Under the pieces are notes generated by a model. It had not been told where the DNA came from. It searched no databases and worked only from the letters and a program-made list of their open reading frames with translations. Positions 1 through 19,783 of a stretch of DNA of 24,533 nt are shown one piece after another. Made by a program: the position numbers and the translations under genes. The stretch lies in the IMG/VR virus record IMGVR_UViG_2711768057_000005. One strand, 5' to 3'. Source of the DNA: a virus (taxonomy: Duplodnaviria; Heunggongvirae; Uroviricota; Caudoviricetes). The stretch's first letter is position 1; each line of letters begins with the position of its first letter.

Positions 1-1284
1 TTACAGACTTCTGGAAGGTTGCGCAGCTCTTACAACACGCGGTTGATCTTCCGCAGCGTCTTCCAGCGCACTTAAATCACGGTCTTTCACTTCTGGCATT
101 TTCAGCGCAGAGATTAAACCAATCACTGAATATGCCATGATCATAATGGCGATCGGATACCAGGATTCCGTCATGGTGCAGAAAATACCCGCCAGGATAG
201 GACCAAAACCGGAAGCGATAAGACCACCAATTTCTTTAGAAATGGCCATCCGGGTAAAGCGGTTTTTACAGCCGAACATTTCTGCCATGGTAATGTTTTC
301 CAGAGCAAATAATCCCAGCACCGCACAGTTATGAATCACAATCAGTGCAACCATAATGGTGCTCGGGGCATAGCTTTTATCTACAATGATAGAAAGCATT
401 GGCCATGCCAGCACAATCGCGGAGGTATTCATAATAATATACGGGATCCGGCGACCAATTTTATCGGATAACCAACCAAGGAACGGAATGGTCATAAAGC
501 CGAGAATCGAACTAATCATCAATGCATCTGTTGGAATTGCTTTGTTAAACAATAACGTCTGCACTAAATAGCCTGCAAGGAAAGTCTGAATTAACCCGGA
601 GTTACCCGCCTGACCAAAACGCAGCCCTGTTGCCAGCCAGAAGGATTTGCTCTGGAACATGCTACCAGCAGGTGCAGGTTTTGCTGTGGGTTGGTTGCTG
701 TCATTAACCTTCTCAAAGACCGGGCTTTCTTTCAGATTCATACGTAACCAGATAGCAAAGACCATCACGACAACGCTCGCCAGGAACGGTATACGCCATC
801 CCCACGCCAGCAGTTCCTCTTTACTGAGAATGAAGAACATAAAGGCCCAGATTGCCGTTGCGCTCAAGGTTCCGCAGTTAGTTCCCATAGCTACAAATGA
901 GGAGATAATTCCGCGCTTACCTTTTGGTGCATATTCCGCCAGCATCGTACCGGCACCGGAAATTTCCGCACCTGCACCCAACCCCTGAATAATACGCAGC
1001 GTCACCAGCAAGATGGGGGCAAAAACACCAATCTGTGCATAGGTCGGTAACACACCAATTAAGGTGGTACAGATCCCCATCATGGTGATGGTAATAAAGA
1101 GCACTTTTTTACGCCCTATTCTGTCGCCCATTTTGCCGAAAATAAATGCTCCGACAATACGCGCCACATAACCTGCACCGTAGGTTCCCATTGCCAAAAT
1201 TAACGCCATTGCCGTTGATGATTCAGGAAAAAATATTTCATGAAACACCAACGCTGCGCCGAGCGAATATAACTGGAAATCCAT
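1..1284 (-). CDS. ydfJ: MFS transporter, metabolite:H+ symporter type (chromosomal flank)
   Basis: 427-aa ORF with many hydrophobic helices and the MFS loop signature GKMGDRIGRKKVL. Symbol is from recalled position next to Qin-type prophages in E. coli, not from a search. Confidence 0.75.
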   Translation of the reverse strand: MDFQLYSLGAALVFHEIFFPESSTAMALILAMGTYGAGYVARIVGAFIFGKMGDRIGRKKVLFITITMMGICTTLIGVLPTYAQIGVFAPILLVTLRIIQGLGAGAEISGAGTMLAEYAPKGKRGIISSFVAMGTNCGTLSATAIWAFMFFILSKEELLAWGWRIPFLASVVVMVFAIWLRMNLKESPVFEKVNDSNQPTAKPAPAGSMFQSKSFWLATGLRFGQAGNSGLIQTFLAGYLVQTLLFNKAIPTDALMISSILGFMTIPFLGWLSDKIGRRIPYIIMNTSAIVLAWPMLSIIVDKSYAPSTIMVALIVIHNCAVLGLFALENITMAEMFGCKNRFTRMAISKEIGGLIASGFGPILAGIFCTMTESWYPIAIMIMAYSVIGLISALKMPEVKDRDLSALEDAAEDQPRVVRAAQPSRSL

Positions 1285-2000
1285 AATTCACAGATGTTTT
1301 TTCTCATTCTGTGGTTTCCTTGGCGCTTTCTAGGTTTTTTCAGATAGTTACATTTTTTCAAAAGCATCCTGAGTTCGATCTTACTATCTATCTGTGGCCT
1401 ATTTCTGTCCCATATATGCCCCAAAAAACACCCCAACAGATAAGCAATCTTTTCATGGTGTTACGCGTAAAAACAATAACGGCTTGAAATTATTCAATAC
1501 ACTCTCGAAAGTGCATCAGCCAACCGCAGAACGTTATTGCATACAACGTTTCTGCGGCATATCACGAAACGATTACTTAATGACTGGGACTTCAGACCAC
1601 TCAATATCCGGTACAATTATGTATCAACGCAGTTTAACAACACCCTATATTTAATCCAGAGTGCGAGCAACGTTGTCCCTTTCTCTTTTGCACTCTTAAA
1701 ATATACGATTACTTAAGTGAAGATGCTTGACGAATCGCCAAATAAAACATCTTCATCAGCATAAAAATCCATATATGATTGAAAATTTAGTCATTAATAC
1801 CATTCATATCTGAATACTAACCTAATACGCTTACTAACCGTGAGAAATCTTTTTTTTCGACTTAATCACTCGAAATAAACTTTCACTCAATTGAAAACAA
1901 TTAGCTACAATTATCATTGCAATATCAAATCAAACATAACAACTTGCATAAATTCTCATGGGATACAGCATCAGTTGTGCCAAACACATAAGGAATTGAA

Positions 2001-2198
2001 ATGGACGGAGAAAGCTTTAACTTTGATGACAATGATATTGAATTTATTGCTTCAATGTATGCATCATGTAAATTATCAGGAAGTATCGCCCCCATAATGC
2101 ATATAATGGTTAGCATTCCAAAAAATAAGAAAAAACAATTCTACGAACGAGTTGAGCATTATTGTAGTTTATATTCCAATAAAAACCCACCTTCTTAA
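2001..2198 (+). CDS. hypothetical small acidic protein (65 aa)
   Basis: ATG at 2001 preceded by AAGGAA (1990-1995) at 5-nt spacing. Lies in an AT-rich, otherwise ORF-poor stretch. No recognisable family. Confidence 0.25.
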   Translation: MDGESFNFDDNDIEFIASMYASCKLSGSIAPIMHIMVSIPKNKKKQFYERVEHYCSLYSNKNPPS

Positions 2199-2340
2199 AT
2201 TCGCTGCATTCTAGTGGATTCCATTAAGAAAACAATGACATACACTCAAACACATCTTTTTTATCAACAGTGAATTTCAGTTCGGCCAGTTTTTACCAGC
2301 TATTATAAAAATAGCACCCATATAAAGTTTTTACCCCACA

Positions 2341-2432
2341 GGTACAGCTGGCCATTCGATAACCGCACTAAGGAAGTGCCAACACGACATCAGCAAGACC
2401 CGATATTTCTTCCATGCCGCCAGCAACGATGT
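2341..2432 (-). pseudogene. remnant of a second tail fibre assembly (tfa) gene 3' end
   Basis: Nucleotide similarity by eye between 2341-2432 and the 3' end of the intact tfa at 3030-3110 (shared GGCCATTC..CCCGATA.TTCTTCCA..CCAGCAACGA). The translation recovers a ..IEWPAVPVG-like C-terminus only across a frame break. Confidence 0.45.
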
Positions 2433-2902
2433 TAAGGTTAAATTAATTATAAAAAAATATATTATAATTCCATCTTCGCATTAAATTTTAACCTTTAATC
2501 TCCACACGGAACAAGTTGCATAGGTGACTATATTAAGAAAACTTATAACCACCAAAAAGATTTGCTTTGCAAGCAAAAACAGTGACCATTGACTCTAAGA
2601 AAATTCCGATCTATTGTTAGTGTCATCAAAGTTACTTAACAGTATTCCGAAATGAAAATACAAAGCAAGCTAATTGTCTTATTAAACATTATCATTGCAT
2701 TTATATTATTTGAGCTTTTAGCTCAAAAATTTGGTTTGAGTACATTATTTTAAAGCAAGATAAACAATATCGGGCACTCTAGTTTTTATAATTAACAATT
2801 AAACGCCCATAAAATGTTATTTACTTTTCTTCGCTATTGTCATATCTTAATATAGTGGCTTACGCCACTCTACTTTCATCATATTTTGTACGTTTATGTA
2901 CT

Positions 2903-2932
2903 CGCCATGAAGCTCTTTCATGGCGATTTTTT
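2903..2932 (+). terminator. intrinsic terminator-like hairpin (orphan)
   Basis: 9-bp perfect stem CGCCATGAA / TTCATGGCG with a 5-nt loop, followed by A then TTTTTT. No annotated plus-strand gene ends just upstream. Confidence 0.4.
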
Positions 2933-3018
2933 ATTCTTAATCCAAGAACATACTCCCTACCTATAGAAAAATCACTTTTTGAACAAAAGAATAACGTATT
3001 TAGGTAATCATTACGAAT

Positions 3019-3600
3019 TTACCCTATAGGTGCTACTGGCCATTCAATATCCGGTGCAGTTGTTGTATTAACACGGTTCAGCAACACCCGATACTTCTTC
3101 CAGGCTTCCAGCAACGAGATTTCTTCCTCCGTTGCAATTTCCAGATCTGCAGCATCCTGAAGCGGCGCAATATGCTCACTGGCTACCTGCATCAGGTTGT
3201 TTTTTGTTTCTTCCGCCTCCCGGATCCGGAACAGTTTTTCTGCTTCCGTATCCTTCACCCAGGCTGTGCCGTTCCACTTCTGATATTCCCCTTCCGGCGA
3301 TAACCAGGTGACATTTTCCGGTAACGAGCCAAGTTCAGAAATAAATAACGCGTCGCCGGAAGCCACGTCATAGACGGTTTTTCCCCGATGATCTTCAACG
3401 AGATGCCACGATGCCTCATCACTGTTGAAAACAGCCACAAAGCCAGCCGGAATATCTGGCGGTGCAATATCGGTACTGTTTGCTGGCAGACCTGTATGAG
3501 GCGGAATATATGCGTCACCTTCACCAATAAATTCATTAGTTCCGGCCAGCAGATTATAAATTTTTATGGTCCGTGGTTGTTCACTCATTCTGAATGCCAT
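3019..3600 (-). CDS. tfaQ: tail fibre assembly protein (Tfa)
   Basis: 193 aa beginning [24 protein letters not shown], the N-terminus I recall for TfaQ/TfaR/TfaE of E. coli cryptic prophages. Its start shares one base with the upstream fibre gene stop (TAATG). Confidence 0.8.
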
Positions 3601-5297
3601 TATGCAAGCCTCACAATATAGTTAAATGCGATGTTTTTGACGGTGTTTTCCGCGTTACCAGCAGCGTTAACGGTGATGGTGTGTCCATGTGAACCAATCG
3701 CAACGGAGTGCGTGTGTGCACCAATACCGACAGTATGTGCGTGTGCACCTGCAGATGCTGCTGTGCCGGACAGTGAGTGGCTATGGTTACCATCTGTACT
3801 GGTATTAGCTAACGCCCCCGTAGACATACCTACTGAGCCTTGTACACCCCAGGTATTTTGACCTGAGCTTGTATAACCATATTGATAAGTATCTTTAAAA
3901 ACACTGGGGTTAAATCGACGGCCATCTCTATGGCTGTGATTACCAGCTGCATTCGTGCTGCCACTTAAACTATGGGTATGCGCACCAGTGTTATTCGTGG
4001 ATTTAGTGCCGTAATCAAACGACGATGTGGTTTTCGTCCCCAAATCAGTACTGGATGCGCTGGCGCTGTGGGTATGCGATTTTATGCCGTCCTGTTCCTG
4101 AGACAATACGGCACGACCACTGGCGGGCTTGCCCTTAATCGTCCAGCCACGCATATCAGGGATCACGCCTGACGGATAAGCGGCTGCAAGTTTCGGGTAG
4201 GCAGATTTGTCAAAAGTCTGCCCCTGCATCAGGGCATAACCAGACGGAACGGTATCTGATGGCCACGGGATTGGTGCGCCGACTGGGTAGCTTTCTGGTG
4301 GAAGATTTTTCGAGGTATAAACTTCTGCCCAGTCTTCCTCAAAACCATAACCGTCTCTTGAAGAACGGTAGAACAGACCACCATTTCTGTAATGCGCCTT
4401 CATCTGCAAGGTCCGGCAACTTCCGACTCCGGTATAGAAGTTAACCAGAATATAGCTGTCGCCAGAGCGGGTGACATTATAAGCGCCTGATTCGGCATTC
4501 CAGGGAACGCCACCATCCGCATCGGCATATGTATCCGTTGCCCTTCTGGCAAAAGCAGCCACATGCGCGGCGGTTAAAGTAATATCTTTGGAACCATCAA
4601 ACTCAACACCAGAAACCCGTCTTGGCGTTTGCAGCTTTGTTGCTGTTAATGCATTACCGTTCAGACTTGCGGACAGTTTGGTTCCAATAACCAGTTCGCC
4701 GGTTGCGTTATCAATAGCAAACGGTCTTAATGTATTCCAGCCACCATAAACATCACCTTGATTGGTAAGCAGCAGGTAAGTTTTAGCGCCATCATTACGC
4801 CATAATGCCCCATACTCCCCACCTATCATTCGAATCTGATTACCACCACGCGCTACAATTTCGTCTGTGGCAAAAAGTTTTTTGCACGACAAGTTATCGT
4901 TAACGATTAATGAATGAGACTCATAAAAACCACGCCCACTCTTAAAATCAAGGATAACGTCCGCCGCGATACATTCAGTCGCCGGATTTGTTGCCCCAAA
5001 CTTATAGGTCGTATCATTAACAACGAGATCAGCACCAGGTGCGGATATTGACAGGCCATCTTCGATAAACGCAAAAACAGGGAAAGCAGCGCCATCAACA
5101 TAGAACACAGAGCGCAAATCATCGCCCTTATTACTCATCATTATTGAGTGGATGGCTCGTTCATTGTTTTGATATTGCCAGAACATTCCATAAGCATAAC
5201 GCCCCCTGTCAGTCCAGCCACCAGGCATAACAAATCCGTTATTCGAGCAACCCACCAGCGATATCAGCAGGAACAGGCAGATCACAGGTTTTTTCAC
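3600..5297 (-). CDS. side tail fibre C-terminal (receptor-binding) region with a lipoprotein-type N-terminus; probable fusion or truncation
   Basis: The C-terminal ~330 aa carry the lambda Stf / StfR-like tip ([21 protein letters not shown], repeated HTHS/HSHS histidine boxes, ending [11 protein letters not shown]). The N-terminus [18 protein letters not shown] looks like a signal peptide with lipobox; it starts at GTG 5297 and overlaps the Rz 3' end in the +1 frame. Confidence 0.6.
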
Positions 5298-5562
5298 GGC
5301 GGAGAATCTCCCGGTATTCGATTACGGTTTTTTCGGTGCTGGTGTCGATCAGGGAGTTAAGACTGTTGGCATGTTCTGCAACCTGATTGAATCGATTGAA
5401 GTTGAATGCCTGGGTGGCGATTACCTGCCCCAGCATAGAGTTGTCACTTCGCAGAACGTCGTTATCGCTCTGAAGATTACTGGCGTAAGAGCAACTCTTG
5501 ACGAGAGCGACCGAAAGGCCAGCAATAACGACAACGCCTATAAGATCCGGATTAATTTTCAT
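5239..5562 (-). CDS. Rz-like i-spanin
   Basis: Position immediately after the endolysin with an ATGA start/stop overlap at 5559-5562. N-terminal TM segment ([21 protein letters not shown]) then a hydrophilic periplasmic region. The track ORF has a 31-codon N-terminal extension that I trimmed. Confidence 0.65.
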
Positions 5563-6101
5563 TGCTCCAGCCCCCAGCACGCCAGTGCGCTTTCCTGATC
5601 GCGCCGCTCGACCTGCCCATAACAGCCATTCTTCTGCCCTTTTGTCAGGCGGCAATCACGCCCACCATCTTTTATCCACCAGCGAATCGCCTCGCATGCC
5701 CCCTTACGATCATCGGCATTCAGCCGCTTATAAAACGTCGACGGGAAACACTTACCGGGGCCAATGTTATAGGGACAAAATGACGCTATACCCGCTTTCT
5801 GTGGTTCGGTCAGTGGCACTTTAATATTGCGCTCCACCCATGCCAGCGCCTTATCCCGTTCAATGGCGTTAACCTGGTCGCATTTTTCCTTCGACAGTTT
5901 CATACCGGGAAAAACGGGTTTTCCATCCACCACCGTGGCACCCCGACAGATGGTCCAGATGCCGGAACCATCGCGGTATGCCGTTGTGTGGTTACCTTCT
6001 TTTTCATTCAGAAACTGGTCGAGAATATCAGGCGCAGGCGCACCGACGGCAATCAGTGCCAGAACGGCAGCCGACAGGCCGTATCTGATTTTTACGTTCA
6101 T
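5559..6101 (-). CDS. SAR endolysin, GH24 (T4/P21-type) lysozyme
   Basis: Catalytic E-x8-D-x5-T spacing in EGNHTTAYRDGSGIWT. Weakly hydrophobic Gly/Ala-rich N-terminus (LSAAVLALIAVGAPAP) typical of signal-anchor-release endolysins. Overall pattern resembles E. coli prophage RrrD/R21 lysozymes from memory. Confidence 0.85.
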   Translation of the reverse strand: MNVKIRYGLSAAVLALIAVGAPAPDILDQFLNEKEGNHTTAYRDGSGIWTICRGATVVDGKPVFPGMKLSKEKCDQVNAIERDKALAWVERNIKVPLTEPQKAGIASFCPYNIGPGKCFPSTFYKRLNADDRKGACEAIRWWIKDGGRDCRLTKGQKNGCYGQVERRDQESALACWGLEQ

Positions 6102-6793: not shown

Positions 6794-7009
6794 TTACTCT
6801 CCCCGTGCAGCCTTACGCTTGTCTTCTTTAATCTTGAAATAAAGGTTTGTCAGGTACGTCAGCAGGCCAAATACCAGGCTACCCAGCACACCTATTGCTG
6901 CCCACTGTGAGGGCGTGACTTTATCGAGCAGCTGTAAAAACCAGTAGCCAGCACTGCCTGCGGAGGTGCCGTAGGCAATGCCTGTTGAAATTTTGTCCAT
7001 GGATTTCAT
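6794..7009 (-). CDS. class II holin (pinholin S21-like) with dual-start motif
   Basis: 71-aa product [26 protein letters not shown]...[22 protein letters not shown], nearly identical to my memory of phage 21 S / EssD. Met1 and Met4 give the holin/antiholin dual start. The track ORF carries a 19-codon N-terminal extension that I trimmed. Confidence 0.85.
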
Positions 7010-7111
7010 AGCCTCACCTCCGCACGGAACGGATGGCATAGTTATTATGTGTAGGCTTCCAGACACATCAATCGGAGCCTTAATTGATATATATGCTGGA
7101 GACGATGCAAT

Positions 7112-7137
7112 ATAAAAAGCTCGCCGTAGCGAGCTAA
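7112..7137 (-). terminator. intrinsic terminator downstream of the lipoprotein pair
   Basis: Minus strand reads AGCTCGC-TACG-GCGAGCT followed by TTTTTATATT. Located between the lipoprotein gene end (7261) and the holin start (7009). Confidence 0.5.
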
Positions 7138-7260
7138 TAAAATGTATTTCTCTGATATTATGTTTATTTGTATTAGCTCAGACTTGACATCACAGGTTTC
7201 GTATATAGAACATCATCAAATCTGTCAGTTTGCTATGAATGAGATATAGTAATTGAAGAG

Positions 7261-7656
7261 CTAACCTCGCATGTCAAAGCCAGATTTCTGAAAATCTCTG
7301 TAGACTTCCGGATTGTTGAAGGCCGGAAATTTGGCTTTATGAGCTGCGGACTTTATCGCTTCGCAATAGGCTTTATCACCGTTACTGGTAGATATTTTTA
7401 ACGCCGTGCCATCCTGAGAGAATTCCATATGCAACCTGCATTTTTTCCCTTTCCAGTTATGCGGCTCATCAAGTTTGGCATTAATTGCAGCTCTGATTCC
7501 CCGCGCTTGCGCCCCCCATTCATCCTGATCATCCCAGCGTCCTGAACTGCAACTACCTGTAGCAGTAGTTTTGTGGCAATCTGAAGGGTGTAAAGGTGTG
7601 CATCCCGCAACAAAACCGACCCAAAAAGTCAACATAACGATTTTCTTTAATCCCAC
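7261..7656 (-). CDS. lipoprotein with TolA C-terminal (domain III)-like region, paralogue 1
   Basis: GTG 7656 with SD GAGGAG. Signal peptide plus lipobox (FVAGC). C-terminal KGKKCRLHMEFSQDG..GDKAYCEAIKSAAHKAKFPAFNNPEVYRDFQ matches the TolA domain-III pattern (C.L.....DG...GD...C.A...A.....P.....VY..F) more weakly than its neighbour. Confidence 0.7.
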   Translation of the reverse strand: MGLKKIVMLTFWVGFVAGCTPLHPSDCHKTTATGSCSSGRWDDQDEWGAQARGIRAAINAKLDEPHNWKGKKCRLHMEFSQDGTALKISTSNGDKAYCEAIKSAAHKAKFPAFNNPEVYRDFQKSGFDMRG

Positions 7657-7806
7657 TTCTTGCTCCTCAATCCATTAAAATCTCAGCAATAGTAGTTGTT
7701 ACGTCCGCCACTGGCTCAGAGCTGACTATCCGCTAGATTTAGCTCAGTGCCGTAGTTGTGTCAGAACAAACCTAAGCCGAAACCGTTTATTACAAAACAA
7801 TAAATA

Positions 7807-8235
7807 TCAGGGTTTAAAATCCAGCACCCCATTTTGAAATACTTTATATACTTCCGGCGAAGGGGGGGCAGGTATATCAGCATTCTTTATCGCATTCATC
7901 GCTTCACGACATAAATCGAGGTCTCCACTTTCTCTTTTAACCTCCAGTAGAAGGCCATTCGGGGCCATATGCATTCTCAGTGTACACTCTTTTCCTGAAT
8001 ACTTACTCGCATCCCCGAACTGTTTTTCGATGGCGCTCTTGATTTGATGGGCATACAGACGGATATCCTCACTAACATCAGAAGTACGTTCAGATGAACT
8101 CACATACTGTGTCTCTATTGCTTTATCGGAGTAATATGATGTACGGTCATGATAATTTGTCGATACAGCATCAGTGCACCCGATAATAATCCCACTAATA
8201 ATCAACGTAAGAATTGATGCGCTACGAAAACCCAT
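7807..8235 (-). CDS. lipoprotein with TolA C-terminal (domain III)-like region, paralogue 2
   Basis: ATG 8235 with SD GAGGA. Signal peptide plus lipobox (IIGC). C-terminal 85 aa (YAHQIKSAIEKQFGDASKYSGKECTLRMHMAPNGLLLEVK..GDLDLCREAMNAIKNADIPAPPSPEVYKVFQNGVLDFKP) closely resemble my recollection of the E. coli TolA C-terminus (..GQIKSAIESKF.DAS.Y.GK.CTLR...APDG.LL.IK...GD..LC.......K.A.IP.PPS..VY.VF.N..LDFKP). Confidence 0.8.
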   Translation of the reverse strand: MGFRSASILTLIISGIIIGCTDAVSTNYHDRTSYYSDKAIETQYVSSSERTSDVSEDIRLYAHQIKSAIEKQFGDASKYSGKECTLRMHMAPNGLLLEVKRESGDLDLCREAMNAIKNADIPAPPSPEVYKVFQNGVLDFKP

Positions 8236-8264
8236 TTTTCCTCACATATGTCATATAGTAAAGG

Positions 8265-8294
8265 ATTATATATACCGTTGTTTTGGACGCTCAA
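8265..8294 (-). promoter_or_regulatory. candidate sigma70 promoter for the lipoprotein pair
   Basis: On the minus strand TTGAGC, an 18-nt spacer, then TATAAT, ending about 30 nt upstream of the 8235 start. Pattern only. Confidence 0.3.
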
Positions 8295-8768
8295 ACAGCG
8301 AATCAGATCAAATAAAACGCACATTTGTTAACATTTACACAAAGTCTGCGTGGGATATTCTGAAAGAATATCCATAATGTGGAGAGAATCTATTGAAGTG
8401 CATGGTGCCGGGGGCCTCCCGGTGAATTCAGTACCAGCACCTGAATCCACGATTATCCCATATACCTACTCGCTGATTGCCCCTCCGCACAGGGGGATTC
8501 ACCATGCCAGTTTCTTTTAACAAACTCCCCGCAAACCAGAGAACAGTCAACCGCCTGAATTGTGAAGTATTTAAAAATTTCTCCCGCTAACTGATACCCG
8601 GCTAACAGTCTGGCGTTTTCTTTTTCAGCAACGGGAAAGCAACAACTACCACACCCGCCACCAGCACACCGTCAGCCAGCACTGACATTATCCGGCTGCT
8701 GCAATGCCATTCACAAAAACAGTAAGCAATCACTTTTTACCGTAACAGGTGATAATCCAGATATGTAT

Positions 8769-9122
8769 CTACCCCAGATGAGTAATCCGAAGTTCATCCA
8801 TACCACAGGTCCTGGCTATTCTGTTGTACTCCTGAACAAGAGCAAATAATTCTGAATTAGCAACCATGAACTCATCGCAAACCCTCTGTATAGCATCACT
8901 ATTCAGAATAATAACGTCTCTTCCCGAAAGACGATCAGGAGCACAGAACAAAACTGTCAAACGGCTGAAGGCCTTTGCTCGTGCTGCATTGACTATATCA
9001 ATACGCTGCCTAAGGATGAAACACCCCGACGCCTCATCAATATTCACTCTACCCACACCATATGAATGATAAATATTTAATGCTGAAAAAACCATTAGAC
9101 CGTATAACAAACACTCAATCAA
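8769..9122 (-). CDS. hypothetical protein (weak call)
   Basis: 117-aa ORF. The 9122 start is TTG without a clear SD; an ATG at 9095 is also possible. No family recognised. Confidence 0.3.
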   Translation of the reverse strand: MIECLLYGLMVFSALNIYHSYGVGRVNIDEASGCFILRQRIDIVNAARAKAFSRLTVLFCAPDRLSGRDVIILNSDAIQRVCDEFMVANSELFALVQEYNRIARTCGMDELRITHLG

Positions 9123-9416: not shown

Positions 9417-9492
9417 TGGTGGCCCTTGCTGGATTTGAACCAGCGACCTGGCGATTATGAGTCGCTCGCTCTCACCACTGAGCTAAAGGACC
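9417..9492 (-). tRNA. tRNA with CAU anticodon, ileX/ileZ-like (tRNA-Ile2, lysidine-type) rather than Met
   Basis: Hand-folded: acceptor GGTCCTT/AAGGGCC, D-stem GCTC/GAGC, loop CTCATAA, T-arm GCTGG-TTCAAAT-CCAGC, discriminator A, CCA. The 3' half is nearly identical to my memory of E. coli ileX. Confidence 0.8.
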
Positions 9493-9635: not shown

Positions 9636-10457
9636 TTACCTAGTTACCTTTTTTAACTGCCGCTCAGCCCATGCTTCTTCAATATCAAACCGGGTCACCA
9701 GCGCATCATAGAATTTCTTAACTGTTTTTTCCCATGACGCGCGTGTTATCTGGTTTGTCACCTCGCATATAGCATTAAATGCCTCCGTTGATGGTAGTCT
9801 TTCATAGCCACGACCACCACAACGCTGGCAGTCTCTGATAACAGGCATACCACGTTTTACCGACTCTTCACGGTGAATGGCGACACCACGCCCACGGCAA
9901 TCCTTACAGGCGGTGGAAACCTCACCCTTTCCGCCACACTCCGGACAGGCAACTTTTACCACCTCCCTGACTTTTTTCCATTCTTCCCAGTAAGACGGAT
10001 ACACACCTTTCGTACACTTTGCCCATACCGGCGGCTTACCATCCGGATACTGGACCTTGTTTGTAAAAACTACGCTTTCAATAAATTTTTCCCCATAGCA
10101 ACAAGGGCACTGCTTTTTACTCGCTGCGCTGCGGGCATAATCCTCAAAAGCGTACGAAGCCATAATGCGCATCACTAACGGTTTTATTTCTGCCGGAAGT
10201 TTTCTCAACGCCGCCACACGATCGCACCGACTGAGTGCATAATCTGCCAGTAATTCTGTTGCCCGCGCCCTGTCATTCATACTGATGCCCATTTTCCCCA
10301 GGAACGCAGAAAACCCCATCTCAGCCCGATTCTGTGTCATGCCCTGCGCGGCCATCACATCAGTGATACTCAGCGCATCTTTTGACGTTGAGGCCGATGC
10401 ATCGGTCAGGCAAGGGGATTTTGGGGAGTAGTATTTCGGTAAATCTTCCAGTTTCAT
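9636..10457 (-). CDS. late-gene antiterminator Q-like protein
   Basis: 273 aa in the position between rusA and the pR'/tRNA/lysis region. Three zinc-ribbon-like motifs (CPECGGKGE, CKDCRGRG, CQRCGGRG). ATGA overlap with the rusA stop. Confidence 0.6.
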   Translation of the reverse strand: MKLEDLPKYYSPKSPCLTDASASTSKDALSITDVMAAQGMTQNRAEMGFSAFLGKMGISMNDRARATELLADYALSRCDRVAALRKLPAEIKPLVMRIMASYAFEDYARSAASKKQCPCCYGEKFIESVVFTNKVQYPDGKPPVWAKCTKGVYPSYWEEWKKVREVVKVACPECGGKGEVSTACKDCRGRGVAIHREESVKRGMPVIRDCQRCGGRGYERLPSTEAFNAICEVTNQITRASWEKTVKKFYDALVTRFDIEEAWAERQLKKVTR

Positions 10458-12628: not shown

Positions 12629-12784
12629 TTACTCCTCAGGTTCGTAAGCTGTGAAGACAGCGACCTCCGTCTGGCCGGTTCGGAGTCGTACCTCGCAGAG
12701 GTCTTTCCTCGTTACCAGTGCCGTCACTATGACGGTTAAACAGATGACGATCAGGGCGATTAACATCGCCTTTTGCTGCTTCAT
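12629..12784 (-). CDS. hokD: Hok-family type I toxin (HokD/RelF-like)
   Basis: 51-aa product MKQQKAMLIALIVICLTVIVTALVTRKDLCEVRLRTGQTEVAVFTAYEPEE matches my memory of HokD almost residue for residue. SD AAGGAG upstream. The track ORF has a 19-codon in-frame extension. No relBE genes are upstream here. Confidence 0.85.
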   Translation of the reverse strand: MKQQKAMLIALIVICLTVIVTALVTRKDLCEVRLRTGQTEVAVFTAYEPEE

Positions 12785-13401
12785 AGCCTGCTTCTCCTTG
12801 CCTTTCGGCACGTAAGAGGCTAACCTACATGTGTCTAGCATGAAATTGGCCTCAGATTAATGTTAAGCGTCTTGCAGGACGCGTAATGTTAACTGGGGCT
12901 TTTCTCTATCTGCCTTTGGTGTTCATGCCTGAGGCAGATAGCCTCAAGCACCCGCAGCAATTCTACTTAACTCACGTCACCTCGCCAATATAAAATCAAT
13001 CAGAAAGGCGATCCGTAAGAACAACAGCAAGACAATAAATTGCCATTACAGCCGCAATAGCTAGCGCACATTTGAGAACCAGCACGACAACCTCCTGTAT
13101 TGGACGTACACCAGTCCTGATAAATATGAGGCTGTCTCATCATTGATTCAATATAACTATTGGGTATAGTTTCTGTGATTTTGTTCTGTAGAAATGGAAC
13201 ACAACAACCAGTCACCACCAGCACTTCTTTAAATACGCCAAGTCCGACGCAAGCTAACCTTCTAGTCCGCTTTGAGCGATCTGTAGACATTGCTAGCAGC
13301 CTTCTGTGTGAATTCTCAGGGAGCAGGTCGGCATAGCATCACGTTGAGGCTCTTACCCTACTTGTTGACACCAACCCTAACTCCACAGACTGATTCATAA
13401 A

Positions 13402-19725: not shown

Positions 19726-19783
19726 TTTCTGGTGACGTTTGGCGGTATCAGTTTTACTCCGTGACTGCTCTGCCGCCCTTTTT
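19726..19783 (+). ncRNA. dicF: DicF small RNA (ftsZ-targeting Hfq sRNA) with intrinsic terminator
   Basis: TTTCTGGTGACGTTTGGCGGTATCAGTTTTACTCCGTGACTGCTCTGCCGCCCTTTTT matches the DicF sequence as I remember it, including the GGCGG/CCGCC terminator stem and U-tail. Lies between ydfC and dicB, preceded by about 340 nt of structured non-coding leader. Confidence 0.8.

Follow-up and report, generated by a model that had tools for sequence, protein, structure and literature searches.

Two genes for predicted lipoproteins with a TolA domain III

Positions 7,261–8,235 of a 24,533-nucleotide viral DNA (Caudoviricetes; IMG/VR record IMGVR_UViG_2711768057_000005), the whole of which is referred to here as the window, hold two intact open reading frames (ORFs) on the minus strand, gene 2 upstream and gene 1 downstream. 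The window has 100%-identical matches in many E. coli chromosomes and is a Qin-type defective lambdoid prophage adjoining ydfJ. Both genes encode predicted lipoproteins that end in the third domain of TolA (TolAIII), and it is this pair, the cassette of DNA that carries it and the function that its products may have that we describe.

The Pfam family PF06519, which has a curated gathering threshold of 25 bits, was matched by gene 2 with 82.6 bits (E 2.4e-23) and by gene 1 with 54.6 bits (E 1.3e-14), and the solved E. coli TolAIII chains were matched by both as well (E 5e-28 and 5e-9 respectively). Aligned with residues 334–421 of E. coli TolA, gene 2 is identical at 52/88 positions (59%) and gene 1 at 27/88 (31%). 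AlphaFold gave the domain a pLDDT of ~90 in both proteins and the N-terminal 40–50 residues values of <50, and the TolAIII alpha/beta fold, in which helices pack on a three-stranded sheet, is present in both modelled domains. The top Foldseek match in the PDB was 2X9A, the IF1 g3p–TolAIII complex, for the gene 2 domain (root-mean-square deviation (rmsd) 0.6 Å over 88 columns, TMt 0.96) and 3QDP for the gene 1 domain (rmsd 1.1 Å); I-pilus and F-pilus filamentous phages have TolAIII as their co-receptor (PDB 2X9A and 1TOL). The pair of cysteines equivalent to TolA C363/C388 was invariant in an alignment of 14 sequences and is at least 99% conserved across both families. A previous interpretation made from the letters alone (the sequence-only reading) had described both genes as encoding signal peptides with lipoboxes and TolAIII-like C-termini, that of gene 2 closely resembling TolA, and had proposed alignment and AlphaFold modelling as a check; the Pfam matches, the identities, the fold and the lipobox rule considered below bear this description out for both proteins.

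Although the pair has the Pfam family, the fold and the C363–C388 disulfide in common with E. coli TolAIII (residues ~314–421; PDB 1S62, 3QDP, 1TOL, 2X9A and 3QDR), neither protein is a TolA orthologue. Full-length TolA models were matched by both over the last ~80–97 positions only, the NF007065 scores of 107.8 (gene 2) and 53.7 (gene 1) lie below the cut-off of 213, and the looser TIGR02794 cut-off of 59.45 was passed by gene 2 only (75.6). Both proteins lack the inner-membrane anchor and the helical domain II; in place of domains I and II they have a lipoprotein signal and a short tether, which would fix them to the outer membrane with no coupling to TolQR. Both genes lie on mobile elements, outside the tolQRA-tolB-pal operon.

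The family has already been recognised by annotation pipelines, and what sets it apart from TolA is that TolAIII occurs by itself, joined by a tether to a lipoprotein anchor. In NCBI records, gene 1 and its homologues bear the label ‘cell envelope integrity TolA C-terminal domain-containing protein’ and gene 2 the label ‘tolA’, both automatic, and PHROG 5772, another automatic label, is matched by both over their full length (E 7e-65 and 2e-62) and has its function listed as unknown. Profile scans of both proteins with Pfam, NCBIfam and PHROG returned TolA/TonB C-terminal families and PHROG 5772 only, and no further domain. PGAP calls the intact gene 2 a ‘tolA’ pseudogene in CP016546, ‘incomplete, missing N-terminus’. 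Since gene 2 is not a TolA orthologue, matches the model by its C-terminal part only and lies outside the tol-pal operon, this label is an artefact that calls for correction; in other assemblies, full-length gene 2 homologues are annotated as intact coding sequences (CDSs).

Lipoprotein signals, start codons and tethers

The PROSITE rule PS51257 asks for a basic residue among the first 7, a hydrophobic stretch without charges and a Cys at positions 15–35 that ends the lipobox [LIVMFWSTAG](2)-[LIVMFYSTAGCQ]-[AGS]-C. It is satisfied by gene 1 (MGLKKIVMLTFWVGFVAG, followed by C19) and by gene 2 (MGFRSASILTLIISGIIIG, followed by C20), as well as by 114/120 gene 1-family and 22/27 gene 2-family members. 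Lipoproteins without Asp at position +2 are directed to the outer membrane by the Lol system. Because residue +2 is Thr, not Asp, in both proteins, as is also seen across both families, sorting to the outer membrane is predicted, and both are putative outer-membrane lipoproteins.

Plasmid orthologues have an ATG where gene 1 has its GTG (7656), and this start is confirmed by the alignment together with the ribosome-binding site GAGGAG, which is conserved in those orthologues. PGAP places the start of gene 1 at an internal ATG in CP016546 (L001 12262–13068) and 12 codons too far upstream on plasmids. The tether of the gene 1 family reads C-x-PLHPS-x-CHKTTA-x-GSCSSGRWDDQDEWG, with two extra cysteines (window 7546–7600, residues ~19–46). 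It is near-invariant across genera though predicted to be disordered, and in its residue conservation it is too constrained for a plain linker; the gene 2 tether is variable among homologues.

Selection and prevalence

Comparison of gene 1 with its plasmid orthologues gave a ratio of non-synonymous to synonymous substitution rates (dN/dS) of 0.11 (dS 0.52), and comparison of gene 2 with a diverged variant gave 0.34, or 0.29 for the domain alone, at dS values of 0.5–0.6 in both cases. These substitution patterns show that both genes are under purifying selection, and on the selection data both are functional genes. Both are carried as optional cargo. That they might instead be decaying, functionless fragments of a captured tolA is very improbable. 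The pseudogene mark given to gene 2 in CP016546 and the defective state of the host prophage would suit such an origin, but the ORFs are intact, ribosome-binding sites, canonical lipoprotein signal peptides and conserved disulfide cysteines are all in place, dN/dS is 0.11 and 0.34, full-length gene 2 homologues stand as intact CDSs elsewhere and AlphaFold confidence in the domain is ~90.

Among 5426 complete E. coli genomes, window positions 7000–8500 are present as a whole in 771 (~14%), gene 2 in 888 and gene 1 in 1269, 525 plasmid copies included in the last figure. Only one of 50,697 phage records, mEp460_ev081, contains either gene. The scan of IMG/VR returned, among the matches listed, identical E. 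coli copies without diversity, and no TolAIII-fold match at E <= 0.001 was found in the BFVD viral structure library.

Two separate lineages

Genes 1 and 2 share 29% identity with one another, and on account of this value and of their differing distributions a local tandem duplication was rejected. The sequence-only reading had taken the two for prophage lipoproteins, with gene 1 as a diverged paralogue. The lipoprotein assignment and the TolAIII domain of gene 1 stand; gene 1 is, however, no sister by local duplication but a separate family, for which ‘prophage’ is too narrow, since its members are also found on plasmids and chromosomes.

The gene 2 family (46 clusters) is found in E. coli and Shigella only. 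Its diverged variants, with 65–74% protein identity, are solitary and follow directly after tRNA-Ile and tRNA-Arg in stx-less Stx-type prophages, where they precede nanS-p, DUF1378, DUF826 and the holin gene, which is exactly the stx position. Recent capture of gene 2 from E. coli tolA was considered and rejected, as megablast of gene 2 gave matches in 888/5426 genomes only, without a link to chromosomal tolA, and the protein identity is 59%.

The gene 1 family is broader (370 clusters). An 88%-identical orthologue is carried by ~600 plasmids; it immediately follows the relaxase gene of I-complex conjugative plasmids (IncI1-type, IncK2/Z) and runs in the same direction, and on pO157 (EC4115; L003 8001–8432) it adjoins a truncated nikB and toxB. 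The classical IncI1 plasmid R64 is without the orthologue, and its nikB abuts trbC, so gene 1 is optional cargo on I-complex plasmids; for the same reason a role as a required conjugation gene was rejected. Nothing but the coding sequence and its ribosome-binding site is common to the prophage and plasmid copies of gene 1. Chromosomes of Enterobacter, Serratia and Citrobacter carry family members as stand-alone genes in non-prophage surroundings, and in Enterobacter their synteny is conserved. The Serratia homologue adjoins genes for GmrSD-N and HEPN domains (L094/L095 6001–8736), which suggests a defence-island neighbourhood.

A third lineage of TolAIII lipoproteins was found on ~310 plasmids, mostly of Klebsiella. 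Its member on the Klebsiella IncFIB/FII plasmid pMR0617ctx (L005 6217–7246) has 144 residues, the lipobox ITAC and the C-terminus ALDFRL, and its gene adjoins one for a secreted thioredoxin-fold protein. An exhaustive search with the TolAIII profile returned 574 representatives at E <= 0.001; 95 of the best 149 of these are <=170 residues long, and 51/77 of those with 110–170 residues pass the lipoprotein rule. Representatives that were looked up belong to Klebsiella, Enterobacter, Serratia and Erwinia, and their names are automatic only.

A cargo cassette in the stx slot

Homology to K-12 Qin, through the holin leader, ends at window 7036, 27 bp 5' of the holin start codon, and homology to the STnc100 repeats of Stx-type prophages begins at 8399. 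Because the flanking homologies stop at these two positions, we take the DNA between them to be the cassette; its G+C content is 37–47%, compared with ~50–54% in the lysozyme and Q coding regions farther out. At the same position of the related prophage K-12 Qin the cassette is absent, as expected of a moron, and cspB and cspF occupy the slot. The slot, 3' of Q and the tRNA pair and 5' of the holin, thus takes exchangeable cargo, namely stxAB in Stx phages, cspB/cspF in K-12 Qin and the present pair, which differs from these toxin and cold-shock protein genes in encoding predicted envelope lipoproteins and is a new example of stx-slot cargo in lambdoid phages. Gene order confirms the earlier placement of the pair between the tRNAs and the holin, and the gene 2 variants in stx-less prophages hold precisely the position in which, as had been proposed, Stx phages carry stx.

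The promoter-like site upstream of gene 2 has 10/12 matches to the consensus and is joint best in the 3 kb scanned, and the hairpin of the candidate terminator (-13 kcal/mol, z = -4.0) lies 126 nt past the gene 1 stop and ~100 nt ahead of the holin start, outside the DNA common to K-12 Qin. Counted over the whole region, promoter-like and terminator-like matches were not clearly more numerous than in shuffled controls, so both sites are to be read as patterns and not as functions; at that level, the promoter–gene–terminator layout noticed earlier is present within cassette-specific DNA (7037–8398). The same 3-kb scan found no promoter-like or terminator-like site on the minus strand between gene 2 and gene 1, and the two genes therefore probably form one transcription unit. 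A promoter common to the gene 2 variants was rejected, as their upstream regions are not homologous.

Binding edges and a proposed decoy function

In E. coli TolAIII, the beta3 edge (A415–K420) binds the TolB N-terminus, colicin N (ColN) and g3p-N1, and the substitutions D418P or K420P abolish ColN, g3p and TolB binding and give a full tol phenotype (PMC4339652; PMC7391070). Colicin A is bound by the beta2 edge (L375–P380) together with K368, K379 and K396 (PMC3365938). The C-terminal beta3 strand of gene 2, LDFKP, is identical to TolA L417–P421, including D418 and K420, and most of the colicin A site is present too, with L375, L376, K379 and K396 kept and K368H, D377E, I378V and P380R changed. 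In the gene 1 family, beta3 reads F-D-M-R-G, conserved at 0.79–0.98, and all three lysines of the colicin A site are lost (E368, S379, Q/H396). Several short TolAIII lipoproteins of other lineages that were inspected end in hydrophobic-[D/E/N/V]-F-[K/R].

Since the experimentally defined binding edges of TolAIII are conserved, it is plausible that the pair serve as outer-membrane decoys for TolA-binding colicins and for the g3p of filamentous phages, the reading that we hold to be the most likely, with a probability of roughly 0.45. Each protein would be exported via Sec, lipidated at the lipobox Cys and delivered by Lol to the outer membrane, on its inner leaflet, so that the disulfide-bearing domain would be held just below that membrane on a tether of 24–34 residues. 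There it would display the edges that TolA uses for beta-strand augmentation, beta3 in both proteins and beta2 in gene 2 only, at the site where colicin translocation domains and g3p would first reach the periplasm, and would be the first to capture filamentous phages by their g3p tip, and group A colicins or bacteriocins akin to them by their translocation domains. Because the decoy is not coupled to the inner-membrane TolQR motor, import would stall and the cell would be tolerant. As each protein keeps different edges, genes 1 and 2 may cover different ligands. In the lysogen, expression would start at the promoter-like site of the cassette; upon induction, the Q-dependent late transcript would supply it, and the cassette terminator would insulate the lysis genes from transcripts that begin at the promoter-like site.

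The affinity of TolAIII for its ligands bears both on the decoy function and on its main rival. TolAIII binds g3p-N1 and ColN with ~1 µM and TolB with ~40 µM affinity (PMC4339652), and because of this ~40-fold difference a decoy at low levels would favour invaders over TolB and would intercept them without crippling Tol-Pal. The rival, which we regard as less likely, holds that the N-terminus of host TolB, or another partner of TolA, is captured by the anchored TolAIII in competition with TolA, leading to less Pal mobilisation and a looser outer membrane; in a phage it would act late, aiding envelope disruption, vesiculation or release, and as a chromosomal copy it would tune envelope physiology. 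Such modulation would agree with the identity of the gene 2 beta3 strand to the TolB-binding strand of TolA (PMC4339652, PMC7391070), with the lie of the cassette in a Q-dependent late transcript directly 5' of the holin and endolysin genes, with the gene 2 variants at the stx position, a position that is expressed upon induction, and with the chromosomal location of the gene 1 family in Enterobacter; moreover, PMC6195910 reports that signal-sequence-directed overproduction of TolAIII serves as a means of releasing periplasmic protein to the medium. However, the weak TolA–TolB affinity would make high expression necessary (PMC4339652), and a strongly membrane-damaging activity is hard to square with stable carriage on conjugative plasmids, pO157 and Enterobacter chromosomes. 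A defective prophage, furthermore, gains nothing from better lysis, yet the genes are intact and identical in hundreds of genomes, and R64 conjugates without the gene 1 orthologue.

A second rival, less probable again, is that the TolAIII fold has been reused for ligands that are not those of TolA, for example via the Cys-containing tether of gene 1, with mobile-element exclusion, a conjugation-related function or binding of a porin or a peptidoglycan-associated protein as conceivable roles. The constancy of that tether across genera despite its predicted disorder, the loss of the colicin A site in gene 1, the position of the plasmid orthologue directly 3' of the I-complex relaxase gene and in its direction, and the GmrSD and HEPN genes next to the Serratia copy all point this way. 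Against it, the beta3 edge is TolA-like in all lineages examined, R64 shows that the gene is not needed for conjugation, and no other domain was detected in the profile scans.

The decoy function is, for its part, consistent with carriage by unrelated mobile elements (prophages, I-complex plasmids, pO157 and Klebsiella IncF plasmids), all of which gain from survival of the host, as expected of host protection. Some of these elements produce pili exploited by filamentous phages, for which TolAIII is a co-receptor, and this is likewise consistent with protection of the host. Several points weigh against the decoy function. Ligand binding is predicted for the two proteins from conserved residues only, and, because the same beta3 edge binds host TolB, interference with Tol-Pal is inseparable from decoy action by sequence. 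A physiological role fits the stand-alone chromosomal gene 1 family of Enterobacter equally well, and a role in lytic growth fits the location of the cassette in the late transcript, just 5' of the lysis genes. The solitary gene 2 variants have no convincing promoter match just upstream, neither gene matched the PADLOC defence library, and we found no study or functional description of these genes in a literature search whose set largely lay outside the subscription journals. Two leads from the literature were dropped: a paper on O157 in soil and water deals with the chromosomal tolA and not with the pair, and a remark on TolA for EDL933_2012, considered as expression evidence, concerns a gene annotated as tail fibre.

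More tentatively, the decoys may belong to a class of tolerance factors that is widespread and has so far gone unrecognised, in which outer-membrane mimics of TolAIII from at least three independent lineages act against Tol-dependent bacteriocins and filamentous phages by imitating a co-receptor. Members would occur on prophages, conjugative and virulence plasmids, and chromosomes of the Enterobacterales, and the present pair would combine the beta2 and beta3 edges of gene 2 with the beta3 edge and tether epitope of gene 1.

Comparison with known systems and significance

Cor of phi80, N15 and HK022, Llp of T5 and TraT of F are small accessory outer-membrane lipoproteins that protect the host from phages or colicins, and they do so by binding and blocking an outer-membrane receptor (FhuA or OmpA). 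Imitation of a periplasmic co-receptor, as proposed here, differs from receptor blocking, and the likeness is one of function and analogy only; profile scans of both proteins gave no sequence relationship to Cor, Llp or TraT. There are also laboratory precedents. In the effect named after Boeke, Model and Zinder, g3p in the envelope is said to bring about colicin tolerance and immunity to Ff superinfection, and free periplasmic TolAIII reportedly disturbs Tol-dependent import and outer-membrane integrity, an observation attributed to Levengood-Freyermuth 1993 and Wan & Baneyx 1998. Those cases involve artificial overexpression of a soluble domain, or the ligand, whereas the pair would be a natural, lipid-anchored mimic of the receptor selected on mobile elements. 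Both studies are cited on TolAIII overproduction in PMC6195910.

If the decoy function is correct, the pair would confer a natural and transferable tolerance to group A colicins and pilus-dependent filamentous phages, which would affect competition in the gut as well as antimicrobial strategies based on bacteriocins and phages. Its spread is relevant in this respect, as the full stretch (7000–8500) is found in ~14% of complete E. coli genomes, and homologues of gene 1 on pO157 and on hundreds of I-complex resistance plasmids. The pair would also be a natural tool with which to study the TolA–TolB–Pal mechanism from the outer-membrane side.

Features of the cassette and its surroundings

The coordinates of all features are collected in Table 1. 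In minus-strand order, Q is followed by a hairpin, the tRNA with a CAT anticodon, tRNA-Arg(UCU), an ORF without a family, a DUF3927 gene, STnc100, gene 2 and gene 1, and past gene 1 come the terminator, a P21-type holin, a DUF1327/YdfR gene, lysozyme and truncated tail-fibre remnants.

Table 1 Positions of the pair, its cassette and neighbouring features in the window
Feature	Position	Strand	Remarks
Gene 2	8235–7807	-	ATG start, 142 residues, intact ORF, upstream gene of the pair; lipobox IIG/C20, variable tether of ~34 residues, TolAIII ~54–142, predicted disulfide pair C84/C109
Gene 1	7656–7261	-	GTG start, 131 residues, intact ORF, downstream gene of the pair; lipobox VAG/C19, conserved Cys-containing tether of ~24 residues, TolAIII ~44–131, predicted disulfide pair C73/C98, beta3 FDMRG
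Likely ribosome-binding site of gene 2, GAGG	8243–8240	-	sequence pattern
Shine-Dalgarno sequence of gene 1, GAGGAG	7663–7668	-	6 nt 5' of GTG; conserved in plasmid orthologues
Cassette-specific DNA (cargo module)	~7037–8398	-	1.36 kb, between the Qin and STnc100 homologies
Sigma-70 promoter-like site, TTGAGC-18 nt-TATAAT	8294–8265	-	ends 29 nt 5' of the gene 2 ATG
Candidate intrinsic terminator, AGCUCGC-UACG-GCGAGCU + UUUUUAU	7110–7135 (hairpin 7135–7118)	-	candidate
P21-type holin gene (essD-like)	6794–7009	-	opens the lysis cassette, 3' of the cassette terminator
STnc100-family small RNA element (Rfam RF02076)	8346–8536	-	110 bits, gathering score 47; upstream flank of the cassette
tRNA-Arg(UCU) and tRNA with CAT anticodon	9233–9492	-	pair of the Stx-phage type, upstream of the cassette
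Terminator-like hairpin 3' of Q	9555–9536	-	candidate tR'; sequence pattern
Q antiterminator gene	9636–10457	-	origin of the late transcript, which would run on through the cassette

The defective state of the prophage is evident 3' of lysozyme, where tail-fibre pseudogenes, tfaQ and a ydfJ remnant are found. As in K-12 Qin, sok/hokD, DicF and an IS009 RNA match (3059–3257) are present too. All these features lie in window 1–6100, 12779–12953 and 19727–19778. The tRNA at 9417–9492 (minus strand) is called tRNA-Met by ARAGORN, from its CAT anticodon, and tRNA-Ile by PGAP; its probable identity is a lysidine-modified Ile tRNA, of the kind found with stx in Stx phages. The ORF of 117 residues (8769–9122, minus strand) that separates tRNA-Arg from the DUF3927 gene has no Pfam match; its DNA is ~72% similar to part of the Stx-type prophage locus L007 (4257–4559), and it may not be a real gene.

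In stx-less Stx-type prophages, STnc100 is found directly 3' of a solitary gene 2 variant (L007 5681–5893; L008 5625–5831), and L007 has four further STnc100 copies downstream (2943–3922). The element may mark recombination joints of the cargo slot. In L008, an ompC-type porin gene (7699–8781) lies between quuD and a methylase gene, within the late-region cargo area that also contains the gene 2 variant, and is a second envelope-remodelling cargo gene within one prophage.

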